NCBI GenBank assembly: GCA_944392565.1
Contig: CALXWX010000002.1
Span: 117,853-181,852 of the forward strand
Length of the DNA: 64,000 nt
Reading direction: 5' to 3'
DNA from: an uncultured Alphaproteobacteria bacterium
GTDB taxonomy: Bacteria > Pseudomonadota > Alphaproteobacteria > Rs-D84
Within the stretch, counting starts at the first letter, position 1, and each line of letters starts with the position of its first letter. Shown piece by piece: positions 57,087 through 62,215 of the stretch. Position numbers and translations under genes: made by a program. The notes below the pieces were generated by a model. It was not told where the DNA came from. It ran no database searches and saw only the letters and a program-made list of their open reading frames with translations.

Positions 57087-57815
57087 ATGGCAACAGAAAA
57101 TATATTTATAAAAGGCATTCGTAATATACTGCGCAAATCGCGCCCAATATTGTGGCGCGAATTATATCACACAATGCATACAATTGACACAGACAGAATT
57201 TTCCCCATGTATTACGCAATATGGTTGCACATAAAATTGGGTTTTCTGGCGACACAACGCGGGCGCCATACAAAAAAACTGGTCAAAGAAATACGCAAAA
57301 ATTTATTTTCTGCCCTTGTAAATCACGCTGATCAAAACACGATTGAAAATTATCATATCGCAACCCTAGAAGAAAAACAAAATTTGGCATATTATGTAAC
57401 ATGGCGCCTGCATTCGGCGATGACATATACCCACCCAAATATATATGATAATTTACAAGAAATTAAATTTTGCGATTCAGAAAAATATAAATTAAAAAAT
57501 AACCAACCCGCCCCATATGGCGAATACTACGTTTCAAAACGCCTTATCTACTACTATTCTGGGGTATTTGAAATGGATTTGACCGATCTGTTAAATGTAA
57601 TCGTTCATGAATATATTCACGCAATGCAACAAAATTCTGAAACAAAATTACCCGACAAAATAATACAATTTCAAAACAGTCATTCCAAGGCATATTGGAA
57701 AACGCCATATATTTGCCGCCCCGATGAAATAGAAGCAGCCAGACTGGCTGACCTGGTTGTACACAACTTTGACAAAAGTTTCAAAAAATATAAACAAACT
57801 AATAATGAATTATGA
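57087..57815 (+). CDS. Hypothetical protein with HExxH motif
   Basis: VIVHEYIHAMQ at about residue 175. No signal peptide. No family recognised. Confidence 0.6.
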   Translation: MATENIFIKGIRNILRKSRPILWRELYHTMHTIDTDRIFPMYYAIWLHIKLGFLATQRGRHTKKLVKEIRKNLFSALVNHADQNTIENYHIATLEEKQNLAYYVTWRLHSAMTYTHPNIYDNLQEIKFCDSEKYKLKNNQPAPYGEYYVSKRLIYYYSGVFEMDLTDLLNVIVHEYIHAMQQNSETKLPDKIIQFQNSHSKAYWKTPYICRPDEIEAARLADLVVHNFDKSFKKYKQTNNEL

Positions 57816-57836: not shown

Positions 57837-58496
57837 TTATCCACGAAATCCAATCGCAACAATAAACATTTCAACACTTTCTTTGCGTGATGCCGGCGGT
57901 TTTATATGATGAACCGATTCGAATTTTTCGCGTATTTGTTTTAATAAATCGTTTGTTGTTCCACCTGTAAAAGATTTCGCAACAAATACCCCGCCTGGTT
58001 TTAATGCACGCACGGCAAAATCAAATGCATATTCCAACAACACCATCTGGCGAATATGGTCGGTCTTTTTATGTCCAACGGTATTCGGCGCCATATCAGA
58101 CAGCACGACATCAACCGTTCCATGCGATGCGCCATCGGGCGACAAGTTTAATTTCTGTTCCAGCCATTTTAACGCATCATCTGATGTAAAATCACCCTGG
58201 TAAAATTCCACACCCGGGATTGGCACAATTTCCAGCAAATCCATCGCAAACACGCGTGATTTTGGAAATGCGCGCATAACATATTGCGACCAAGACCCCG
58301 GCGCCGCCCCCAGATCGACAACCACCTGGCCATTTTTCAAGAATTTATATTTTTCATTTATCTCGATTAATTTATATGCCGCGCGCGCCCGATACCCATC
58401 ACGATGCGCACGCGCAACATACGGATCCGCCGCCTGGCGTTGAATCCACGCGGCTGATGATTTTTTCGATGAAATTTTCTTGTTCAAAATTTTCAT
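57837..58496 (-). CDS. rlmE: 23S rRNA (uridine2552-2'-O)-methyltransferase RlmE/FtsJ
   Basis: AAYKLIEI...VVDLGAAPGSWSQY and DVVLSDMAPN motifs. Confidence 0.94.
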   Translation of the reverse strand: MKILNKKISSKKSSAAWIQRQAADPYVARAHRDGYRARAAYKLIEINEKYKFLKNGQVVVDLGAAPGSWSQYVMRAFPKSRVFAMDLLEIVPIPGVEFYQGDFTSDDALKWLEQKLNLSPDGASHGTVDVVLSDMAPNTVGHKKTDHIRQMVLLEYAFDFAVRALKPGGVFVAKSFTGGTTNDLLKQIREKFESVHHIKPPASRKESVEMFIVAIGFRG

Positions 58497-58792
58497 TTCT
58501 GCCGTTTTGCTGATAATGCAGCCGCCCGAACATTACTACGCGTACTTTTATAAAACCTGATTGCACGATATAACGCCCGCCGCCGTCCGATTTTACCATG
58601 GCTATCAAATGTTGCGAACAATAACTTACAAACACCATGATGACGATATGTTACCTGCACCTCATACCCCAGCAAAATCCGTCCAACATCATTATATGTT
58701 ATGTACTTTGGTTGCGGCGCCAAAACATTCACCGGCGTCCAATCAAAAATATTACGCACCGCATTCCAATTAATTAAATTTTTCCAATTCAT
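58493..58792 (-). CDS. Hypothetical 99-aa basic protein, translationally coupled on both sides
   Basis: ATG 58792 lies 1 nt after the upstream stop. Its TGA overlaps the rlmE ATG (ATGA). No family recognised. The track reports it as part of the longer ORF 58493..58999. Confidence 0.55.
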   Translation of the reverse strand: MNWKNLINWNAVRNIFDWTPVNVLAPQPKYITYNDVGRILLGYEVQVTYRHHGVCKLLFATFDSHGKIGRRRALYRAIRFYKSTRSNVRAAALSAKRQK

Positions 58793-58793
58793 G

Positions 58794-59321
58794 TTATTTA
58801 TTCTCCATACCCGACTGCTGTTTTTGCAATTTTTCCATAACTGCTTCCATTCCCCCCATGCGTTGAACCATTGCCATTTGCTGACGCATTTTTGAATATT
58901 GCTTGATAATATGTTCAACATCACGCACAGTGCAACCTGCTGTTTCTGCAATACGCGCCTTGGCATTTGCAAAAATTTTTTCTGGCACCGCCCGCTCATC
59001 TGGGGTCATCGCTTCCAGTATTTTAATTTGTGCATCAACACTGCCATCTTTAATTTTTTCTTTCATTGCGGCAACTGCCCCTGACATTCCCGGCACCATT
59101 TTCAACAACCCACTAAAATTACTCATCTTTTTTATTTGTTTCAGTTGCGCCAACATGTCATTCATATCAAATTGTCCAGACATCATGCGCTGGGCGGTTT
59201 CTTTCATGCCACTGGGCATTTTCGCTTCCATTTTCTGCAATTCTTTTTCATCAATCTGCACATTGTCATCCAGATTTTCTGTGGCAGATTTTGCGGCTTT
59301 CTTTTTCCCAAATCCAAACAT
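58794..59321 (-). CDS. Stand-alone SRP54/Ffh M-domain-like protein (no NG domain)
   Basis: Aligns by eye to the E. coli Ffh C-terminus: [33 protein letters not shown] vs GFDLNDFLEQLRQMKNMGGMASLMGKLPGMG, and [12 protein letters not shown]...[27 protein letters not shown] vs MTMKERAKPEII...RIAAGSGMQVQDVNRLLKQFDDMQRMM. Own AAGGA SD. Upstream neighbour is uvrA. Confidence 0.8.
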
Positions 59322-59347
59322 ATTTTTTCCTTTTTGCTGTGTGTTAA

Positions 59348-62215
59348 TTATTTAGAATTACTTTTCTTTTTTGGCACGTCCAAATATTTTTTCAAATATT
59401 TACCCGTCAGCGATTCTGGATTATCTGCGACCTGTTCTGGGGTACCGGTGGCAACAACGCGCCCACCGTTTGCGCCGCCCCCTGGTCCCAAATCAATAAT
59501 CCAATCGGCGGTTTTAATCACTTCCAGATTATGTTCAATAACAATTACTGTATTACCCTGATCAACCAGTTCATGCAATACAGATAATAACAATTTTATA
59601 TCTGCAAAATGCAGCCCTGTTGTCGGTTCATCCAGAATATATATCGTCTGCCCTGTACTGCGTGCCGCCAATTCCTTGGACAATTTTATACGCTGTGCCT
59701 CGCCCCCGGACAAATCCAACGAACTCTGCCCCAGTTTGATATAATCCAATCCAACCCGCTTTAATAATTCCAGCTTGCGCGCGATCTGCGGCACATTTGT
59801 AAAGAACCGATATGCTTCTTCGACCGTCATATTTAATACATCAGCGATAGATTTTCCCTTGTACTTTACCGCCAGTGTTTCATCATTATACCGCGCACCG
59901 TGACATTTATCACATTCGACATACACATCCGCCAAGAAATTCATTTCAATTTTTATCTGACCATCACCTTGGCATGCCTCGCATCGACCACCCTTGACAT
60001 TAAACGAGAAACGCCCCGGTCCATACCCGCGCGCCTTGGCTTCTGGCAGACCGGCAAAGAAATCACGAATATTTGAAAACACACCGGTATATGTTGCTGG
60101 ATTGCTGCGCGGACTGCGCCCGATTGGCGATTGATCGATATCAACCACCTTGTCCACATGTTCCATACCACGGATGATATCGTGCGCCCCCATTTCAATT
60201 TTTGAATTATACAGCGCACGCATCAACGCCGGATATAATGTATCCAGCAATAATGTTGATTTACCAGACCCAGACACCCCGGTTAGCGCAACAAATTTAC
60301 CCAACGGAAAATCAACATTTATATTTTTCAGGTTGTTTTCACGCGCCCCCTGGACAGAGATCACATGCCCATTTCCACGGCGGCGTGTTTTTGGTACCTC
60401 TATCCGCCGCTTGCCCGATAAATATTGTCCAGTCAATGAATCTTTGTTTTTTATAACCTGGGCGGGGGTTCCTGCGGCAACAACACGCCCACCATTTATC
60501 CCGGCACCCGGTCCGATATCCACCAGATAATCTGCGGCACGCATTGCATCTTCATCGTGTTCAACAACGATAACTGAATTATCCTTGTCGCGCAGCATCT
60601 TTAATGTATCCAATAATTTATCATTATCGCTTTGGTGCAATCCAATTGACGGTTCGTCCAACACATACAACACCCCAGACAACCCGCTGCCAATTTGCGA
60701 CGCCAATCTGATTCGTTGCGCTTCGCCCCCCGACAGCGTTCCCGCCATACGCGACAATGTTAAATATCCCAATCCCACATTTTGCAAGAAATGCAACCGA
60801 CTGGTAATTTCACGCAAGATAACCCGCGCAATATCATTTTCTTTTTGCGTCAAATGATTGGGCAAATCCGTAAACCAGCGCAACGATTGATCCACCGCCA
60901 TATCGCACGCATCCATAATATCCAGTCCATAAATCTTTACACATAATGCCTGGATATTTAACCGTTTACCATGACACATTGGACACGGTTTTTCTGATTG
61001 ATATTTTGCCAGTTCTGCACGCACAGCTTCGGAATCCGATTCGCGCCAGCGGCGTTCGATATTCGGTATAACACCTTCGTATGGTTTTTCATACACAAAA
61101 CCATTCCAGTTAATTTTTATCGGATCGTCCCCACTGCCATACAAAATAATATCTTTCTGTTGCTGGGTCAGTGTATGCCACGGCTTTGACAATGGTATTT
61201 TATATTTCTTGTGCAATGCATCCAGCAAATGATCAAATTGACTTAACATCCCACCACGCGACCATGGTGCAATTGCGCCATCCAATATAGATTTTGACGG
61301 ATCTGGCACAACCAAATCTGGCGACATATTTAATTGCACACCCAAACCATCACACGATGGACACGCCCCCATCGGCGCATTAAAAGAAAACAAACGCGGT
61401 TCAATCTTTGGCACGGTAAATCCACTGACCGGACATGCATAGTTCTGTGAATATAATATATCTTCGTTTGTATCCAGCCGCCGCACCAAAACCGACCCCG
61501 GCACCAAACGCAACGCCCCTTCGAAAGACGAATACATTCGCGACCGGAATTCATCCACATCAGATTCAGCCGCCCCCAACGCCGGCATCTGCAAACGATC
61601 AACAATTACAAATATTGTATGCTTTTTGTTTTTATCCAACGGCGGCACCGCAGATAAATCGTACAGTTCGCCATCAATTATCGCACGCTGATACCCCTGC
61701 TTTACCAAGAATGCAATTTCTTTTTTATATTCACCCTTGCGTTCACGAACCAGCGGCGCCATAATAAAAATCTTTACGCCCGCCGGAATTTTCATGGTCC
61801 AATCGACCATTTCACCAATTGTCTGGGATTTAATTGGCAACCCCGTGACCGGCGAATGCGGCACCCCAACACGCGCCCACAACAATCGCAAATAATCATA
61901 AATTTCGGTAACCGTTCCAACCGTAGAACGCGGATTTTTCGATGTTGTTTTTTGTTCAATGGAAATTGCGGGCGCCAATCCTTCGATTAAATCGACATCT
62001 GGTTTTTTCTGCATATCCAAGAATTGCCGCGCATACGATGATAACGATTCGACATAACGCCGCTGACCTTCGGCATAAATGGTATTAAACGCCAACGATG
62101 ACTTTCCAGACCCAGATACACCAGTCAAGACCACCAATTTATTTTTTGGTATGTCCAAATCAATATTTTTAAGATTGTTTTCGCGCGCCCCGCGAATTTT
62201 TATTACCCCAGCCAT
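59348..62215 (-). CDS. uvrA: Excinuclease ABC subunit A
   Basis: 955 aa. Two ABC modules ([10 protein letters not shown] / [10 protein letters not shown]) and zinc-finger Cys clusters. Confidence 0.97.

Follow-up and report, generated by a model that had tools for sequence, protein, structure and literature searches.

An Ffh reduced in place to its M domain and the loss of the remaining signal recognition particle in a clade of Rs-D84 Alphaproteobacteria

Can a bacterium keep the cargo-binding module of the signal recognition particle (SRP) and dispense with the rest? The SRP, with its Ffh, 4.5S RNA and FtsY, is regarded as a near-universal machine of the cell, and the cycle of its twin GTPases is the textbook core of the mechanism. 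The question is raised by a 175-aa open reading frame (ORF) in an alphaproteobacterial genome of the Rs-D84 lineage (assembly GCA_944392565.1; 939 kb, 7 contigs, 99.3% complete). It lies in a 64,000-nt stretch of contig CALXWX010000002.1, referred to here as the window; coordinates are window positions. An earlier note had read the ORF as a free-standing M domain of Ffh, either a paralogue or part of a split SRP. We find that the organism has no other ffh orthologue than this gene, which has been cut in place to the GM linker and the M domain. Across a clade of several genera in family Rs-D84, the whole GTP-driven half of the SRP (the N and G domains of Ffh, and FtsY) has been lost together with the 4.5S RNA. 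These gut bacteria belong to GTDB order Rs-D84, are uncultured, and have genomes that are reduced (PMC12306168); the paper on this gut lineage does not mention the SRP. NCBI records of the close homologues carry the names Candidatus Enterousia or Alphaproteobacteria bacterium, and the proteins are labelled hypothetical.

An M domain at the ffh locus

The gene and the surroundings that define it are the following.

58794..59321, minus strand: NG-less ffh, encoding the 175-aa M-only Ffh (assigned from Pfam SRP_SPB, synteny and the ratio of nonsynonymous to synonymous substitution rates, dN/dS)
58875..59174, minus strand: M domain proper (SRP_SPB, residues 50-149), with helix M1 and the finger loop (residues 51-96), from Pfam, alignment and fold match
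59322..59347, minus strand: uvrA/ffh spacer of 26 nt, with the Shine-Dalgarno sequence AAGGA 6 nt before the ATG (read from the sequence)
59348..62215, minus strand: uvrA, a 955-aa ORF and the conserved upstream neighbor, 85-95% identical across the genus loci
57837..58496, minus strand: rlmE, encoding the 23S rRNA U2552 2'-O-methyltransferase, the ancestral downstream neighbor (Pfam FtsJ, E 3e-59)

The full SRP_SPB profile (PF02978, positions 1-91 of 91) aligns with residues 50-149 of the ORF at an E value of 1.1e-22 and a score of 80.6 bits, against a cut-off of 27, and this is the single SRP_SPB match in the genome. The match to the ffh model TIGR00959 is limited to model positions 313-427 and reaches 83 bits against a cut-off of 473. 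The AlphaFold2 model of the protein (predicted local distance difference test score, pLDDT, 75.8; residues 5-24 disordered, with pLDDT below 50) superimposes on solved M domains of Ffh and SRP54 with Z scores of 11-13.5. Its best structural match is the signal-bound SRP54 M domain 4xco_D (Z 13.5; root-mean-square deviation of 1.6 A over 93 residues). Profile and fold thus bear out the reading of the ORF as a free-standing M domain, which the earlier note had proposed to check by just such a profile alignment.

The same note had stated that no NG domain adjoins the gene or lies frameshifted nearby, and this is what we observe. The spacer to uvrA is 26 nt long. PF00448, the SRP54-type GTPase domain that Ffh and FtsY have in common, has no match in the whole 939 kb of the source genome. 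When the genome was searched by tblastn with four full-length Ffh proteins from sister families, the M part alone was matched (about 40% identity), the alignments beginning at about query residue 296.

The origin of the gene can be read from its position. In full-length genera of the same family the gene order is uvrA, ffh, rlmE, rnhA, tkt; all 28 related M-only loci examined, like the source genome, keep uvrA and rlmE on either side of the M-only gene. Because the order uvrA/ffh/rlmE is common to the sister genera, the gene is an ffh orthologue from which about 290 codons were deleted in place. The idea of a paralogue is not sustained, since the synteny is that of the ffh locus itself and the genome holds no full-length ffh. 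Two routes to the deletion are possible from the sequences. An internal in-frame deletion may have kept the start, as both forms begin with Met-Phe; or the 5' part of the gene may have been removed, as the N-terminal octapeptide of the M-only protein (MFGFGKKK) aligns with ILGMGD, the motif that closes the G domain.

Loss of the SRP GTPases and of 4.5S RNA

The survey of the family covered 151 genomes, from the M-only genera g1 (Enterousia), g12, g17, g19, g20, g24 and g26 and from ten sister genera with full-length Ffh. In genus g1 the short M-only ORF is present in 108 of 108 genomes and PF00448 in none, and PF00448 likewise has no match in g12, g17, g19, g20, g24 and g26 (about 120 sampled genomes over the seven M-only genera). 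By the same domain search, FtsY was found neither in the source genome nor in these approximately 120. The sister genera, with Ffh of about 440-500 aa and FtsY of about 290-320 aa, have PF00448 in 28 of 29 genomes, the exception being one 54%-complete assembly. In g1 and in the six other M-only genera, presence of the short ORF and absence of the SRP GTPases coincide exactly. Weak PF00448 matches in seven genus genomes were considered as SRP GTPases and rejected, as they are Der/EngA.

The RNA component was sought in three ways. Rfam RF00169 (bacterial SRP RNA) gave no match in the source genome; the short 4.5S RNA of the sister genera is itself detected weakly by Rfam, at 26 bits. An order-specific covariance model (R1) was built from eight SRP RNAs of order Rs-D84. 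It finds 4.5S RNA in four full-length genera outside its training set, at E values of 1e-9 to 1e-11, and finds none in 61 Enterousia genomes or in the closed genome G070. Finally, the core 4.5S motif GKCAGG...AGCAGC does not occur in the source genome. The motif is present in 7/8 loci checked, the exception (G041) being a 19.8-bit Rfam candidate; model R1 later placed the 4.5S RNA of G041 on a contig other than that of the candidate. The search of the genome for full-length ffh, ftsY and the 4.5S RNA gene, suggested by the earlier note, has thus been run, and none of the three was found. A highly derived split SRP is not supported either, as there is no separate NG gene, ftsY or 4.5S RNA in the genome.

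In the genera of family Rs-D84 with full-length Ffh, the 4.5S RNA is shortened to about 80 nt and has the core GGUCAGGGGGAAACCAGCAGCC (L082:1501-1579, minus strand; L085:1472-1551, plus strand; L090-L093). At 26 bits it falls below the Rfam gathering threshold, so standard annotation would miss it.

Most of these genomes are metagenome bins, and the weak response of Rfam to the RNA of the sister genera is a further reason to ask whether NG, FtsY and 4.5S RNA were simply missed, through unassembled contigs, loss in binning or extreme divergence. However, the same state recurs in about 120 genomes, the closed single-contig genomes G070 and G101 among them. The 26-nt spacer leaves no room for an NG domain, the ancestral flanks of ftsY (pgk and clpP/clpX) now adjoin other genes, and the tailored RNA model is still negative with its positive controls in place. 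An artefact of this kind is contradicted by the data, and we give it almost no weight.

In a tree of uvrA and rlmE, from which g20 was omitted, five M-only genera form a well-supported clade, which makes a trichotomy with the sixth M-only genus (g17) and full-length g15. Independent origins of the M-only state were considered, as g17 stood apart in a FastTree of uvrA, and were rejected: a better model returned the trichotomy, and the approximately unbiased test does not reject a single origin (p 0.25). The derived features common to the M-only proteins favor a single origin.

What the M-only protein keeps and what it may do

Bacterial Ffh (SRP54 family; TIGR00959; SRP54_N, SRP54 and SRP_SPB) is the protein to which the M-only gene is orthologous by position. 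The two are alike in the fold of the M domain, the length of the finger loop, the methionine-rich groove and the methionine-rich C-terminal helix. They differ in that the M-only protein lacks the N and G domains, has neither FtsY nor 4.5S RNA to work with, has a degraded RNA-binding motif, and carries a new invariant N-terminal octapeptide followed by an acidic linker. These parts of the protein are placed as follows.

59298..59321, minus strand: N-terminal octapeptide MFGFGKKK (residues 1-8), defined by conservation and disordered in the AlphaFold2 model
59223..59297, minus strand: variable acidic linker (residues 9-33), differing in length and sequence between species, net charge about -3
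58935..58973, minus strand: degraded SRP-RNA-binding motif (residues 117-129), from alignment with full-length relatives
58824..58883, minus strand: conserved methionine-rich C-terminal helix (residues 147-166), more conserved than in full-length Ffh

The earlier note had called the 4.5S-RNA-binding motif degraded; our alignment, in which the E. coli sequence GSRKRRIAAGSG lines up with it, agrees and extends the degradation to the whole clade. Full-length relatives have SMT..ER..P.I..(S/A)RKxRIAxG(S/A)G, whereas all M-only proteins begin the motif with AMT..ER.. and have the core NAKxRIAE..G, with one arginine and one glycine lost and one glutamate gained. This degradation fits the loss of the SRP RNA. 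Helix M1 and the methionine-rich C-terminal helix are retained, the finger loop has not changed in length, and the M part holds 16 methionines, compared with 14-17 in relatives.

The octapeptide MFGFGKKK is identical in 118/120 nearest cluster representatives, has close variants in the other six genera, and was not found elsewhere in the source genome. It may serve as a membrane or partner anchor. Similar sequences open the FtsY proteins of sister genera (MGIFSKI..., MGIFKKIK...), and the N-terminal part of FtsY is, in model bacteria, a lipid-binding element. The likeness is a lead that is only suggestive.

M-domain identity between the M-only clade and the nearest full-length genus, g15, is 46% at a uvrA+rlmE identity of 80%, while full-length genera at the same uvrA+rlmE distance (80%) have M domains that are 71% identical (61-71% among full-length genera at similar divergence). 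Among the M-only genera themselves both values are 79%. From the figures of 46% and 79% there follows a burst of change when the partners were lost and a tighter constraint now. Within the genus, dN/dS of the M-only gene is 0.06-0.2 (median 0.08), and the finger-loop region is near-invariant across the M-only clade and variable in full-length Ffh. Judged from these comparisons, the M-only domain is now under tighter constraint than the canonical Ffh M domain, finger loop included.

These values also bear on whether the gene is a functionless, decaying remnant of ffh. The gene has lost two thirds of its length and both its partners, and its RNA motif is degraded, as decay would have it, but the ORF is intact with a Shine-Dalgarno sequence in 108/108 sampled genus genomes and in six further genera, and a dN/dS of 0.08 with a cross-genus identity of 79% contradicts the idea. 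We regard a dead gene as extremely improbable.

If the gene is alive, what would the protein do? The fold search that recovered Ffh and SRP54 also matched mitoribosomal proteins: Tetrahymena 6z1p_AT (Z 9.9), Polytomella 8apn/8a22 chain Ub (Z 9.6) and Toxoplasma 9i05_AI (Z 10.6), at sequence identities of 12-22%. The Tetrahymena and Polytomella chains are mL105 (MAP67), and we take the Toxoplasma chain to be the mL105 orthologue. The M-only protein resembles mL105/MAP67 in being derived from Ffh, in consisting of the M domain alone, in acting without SRP RNA and in belonging to a lineage of alphaproteobacterial ancestry. Derived from Ffh but lacking NG, mL105 occupies the tunnel exit, inserts its C-terminal helix into the tunnel beside uL23, and makes contact with the Oxa1 insertase (PMC7326499, PMC9576764). 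MAP67/mL105 is proposed to be a mitochondrial Ffh that lost its N and G domains (PMC8321541). There are differences as well: mL105 is a proven constituent of the ribosome, whereas the M-only protein is a putative ribosome binder; MAP67 is believed to have been present in early eukaryotes alongside full-length mtFfh, whereas the Enterousia protein is the sole copy; and the M-only gene is bacterial and chromosomally encoded, unlike mitochondrial mL105/MAP67. Common descent with eukaryotic MAP67 is not supported, for g15 and the other nearest genera in the tree keep full-length Ffh. Because the deletion arose inside family Rs-D84, at the ffh locus, the origin is independent of MAP67, and the Enterousia protein shows that an mL105-type reduction also took place separately in bacteria. 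Chloroplast cpSRP54 is another SRP54, of organellar, bacterial type, that acts without SRP RNA, but it keeps its NG domain and its receptor cpFtsY, both of which are gone in the M-only clade.

The best explanation of the gene, and one that we judge somewhat probable, is that it encodes a GTPase- and RNA-independent binder of signal and transmembrane segments, descended from the sole ffh orthologue by reduction in place. The methionine-rich groove would go on binding hydrophobic stretches, both signal sequences and transmembrane segments, and would need neither RNA nor a GTPase cycle to do so. The body of the M domain and the conserved C-terminal helix would probably seat the protein at the ribosomal tunnel exit, and MFGFGKKK, on its flexible acidic linker, may also hold it at the membrane or the translocon. 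Nascent membrane proteins could then be handed passively to SecYEG/YidC, which is the role proposed for mL105/MAP67. SecY, SecA, YidC, SecB and trigger factor are present in the genome. By a crude hydrophobicity count, about 111 ORFs have at least 2 hydrophobic segments and 56 have at least 4; with the former number, clients for co-translational insertion still exist.

Several observations weigh against this explanation. A C-terminal ribosome-binding tail of YidC was not found in the source genome, which also removes compensation by such a tail, a candidate that we rejected, and clade-specific extensions of uL23, uL29 and uL24 were not found. No co-adapted docking site has therefore been found. 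In this uncultured organism, binding of the M-only protein to ribosome or membrane is putative. The octapeptide is too short for homology testing, and its likeness to FtsY is only suggestive. Moreover, a new and invariant sequence has become fixed in the finger loop and in what used to be the RNA-binding helix, which is equally compatible with a new partner that has nothing to do with targeting.

Two alternatives draw on these same observations. In the first, the protein would be a soluble cytosolic holdase, a post-translational chaperone of hydrophobic segments working off the ribosome and the membrane (compare cpSRP54 with light-harvesting chlorophyll-binding protein, or SecB). Retention of the hydrophobic, methionine-rich groove and the lack of any adaptation found in ribosomal proteins or YidC speak for it, but the genome already has SecB and trigger factor, both the invariant N-terminal peptide, with its flexible linker, and the C-terminal helix, with its conservation, have the look of tethers, and the solved precedent, mL105, is ribosome-bound. 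We consider a holdase unlikely. In the second, the domain would have been recruited to a new, non-targeting function as a subunit or regulator, its groove holding a fixed partner helix. The burst of substitution on the stem of the clade, followed by constraint tighter than that of canonical M domains and reaching into the finger loop, which is variable in normal Ffh, and into the helix that once bound RNA, is what such recruitment would leave. Yet no new conserved neighbor has appeared (a 99-aa ORF downstream of the M-only gene, orf99, is facultative, and uvrA and rlmE are ancestral), and the fold and methionine content are still those of a signal-binding M domain, so that we deem this reading quite improbable. 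By likelihood we rank the holdase first among the rivals, then the new function with a fixed partner, the dead remnant and, last, the artefact.

Neighboring genes, wider distribution and meaning

Downstream, the M-only gene is followed by a small ORF.

58493..58792, minus strand: orf99, a facultative, lineage-specific small protein, 1 nt after the M-only gene

The stop of orf99 and the start of rlmE overlap as ATGA. From this arrangement the earlier note had argued for functional coupling of the M domain to orf99 and to rlmE; neither proposal is borne out. Adjacency of ffh and rlmE is ancestral, being found also in genera with full-length Ffh, and the M-only gene directly abuts rlmE in many species. 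A hidden Markov model of the orf99 family, which is small and fast-evolving (motif FDWTP..V..P...Y....GY.V.V.Y.HHG), finds it in about 15/29 M-only loci, between the M-only gene and rlmE and sometimes in two tandem copies, and has no match in full-length-Ffh loci (orf99-family loci listed: L026, L027, L031, L034-L037, L039, L043, L048, L051). With orf99 in about half of the M-only loci, and hence facultative, we rejected it as an obligate partner. It has no Pfam, NCBIfam or PHROG match. Its AlphaFold2 model (pLDDT 91.6) shows a helix, a four-stranded sheet and a long C-terminal helix, and has no Foldseek match in the PDB. Between rnhA and rlmE there is also a 242-aa ORF (57087-57815, plus strand), whose product has an HExxH-like motif (VHEYIHAMQQ); it has no tblastn match in any of 20 related genus loci and looks like a strain-specific insertion.

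Outside the family, a library of 1.8 billion proteins contains many short SRP_SPB proteins. As M-only Ffh they were rejected: nearly all start with MGDVVSLVEKA and keep SRKxRIAxGSG, and are normal Ffh cut at the 5' end. The ESM Atlas gave generic SRP_SPB clusters alone. The exception among the short library proteins, P0126, is a more divergent M-only Ffh that has 138 aa, starts with MGLFGKKK, also has a degraded RNA motif and is 48% identical; it lies on a single 2.6-kb metagenome contig from ENA. Its sequence suggests a deeper or separate M-only lineage.

A class-wide sample of 250 alphaproteobacterial genomes, each at least 90% complete and including the unpublished G227 and G401 (both with normal matches), has SRP GTPases in 239. 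Besides three Enterousia, nine genomes of six genera had no match to PF00448, PF02978, a full Ffh query or RF00169 (G212, G241, G388, G297, G299, G427, G301, G428 and G350; loci L095-L101). They measure 0.5-4.6 Mb and are mostly single-contig. The gene rpsP was found in 7/7 of those searched, and in G241 and G299 dapF-mtaB abuts rpsP with no ffh between, compared with two control genomes in which ffh lies directly upstream of rpsP. Either these nine represent an unrecognised total loss of the SRP or they reflect a gap in the genome collection; the sample gives a hint that several further alphaproteobacterial genera may have lost the SRP completely.

The earlier note knew of no described free-standing bacterial SRP54 M-domain protein, and our literature search (Enterousia, Rs-D84, SRP_SPB/PF02978, loss of Ffh or FtsY) likewise found no precedent for the M-only state in bacteria. 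Here the cargo-binding module alone has been kept under strong selection across seven genera and about 120 sampled species genomes, some of them closed. The clade is thus a natural experiment on what an M domain can do alone, and a bacterial counterpart to mL105/MAP67 that is open to heterologous expression. It is also a caution for genome-quality tools and annotators that treat ffh and ftsY as universal markers. That this clade, with its more than a hundred polytopic membrane proteins, runs co-translational targeting by a tethered M domain alone, without the SRP GTPase cycle or the RNA, is a proposal that we find plausible though somewhat short of probable. If true, the clade would re-enact, in living bacteria, the step by which mitochondrial Ffh became the ribosomal protein mL105.

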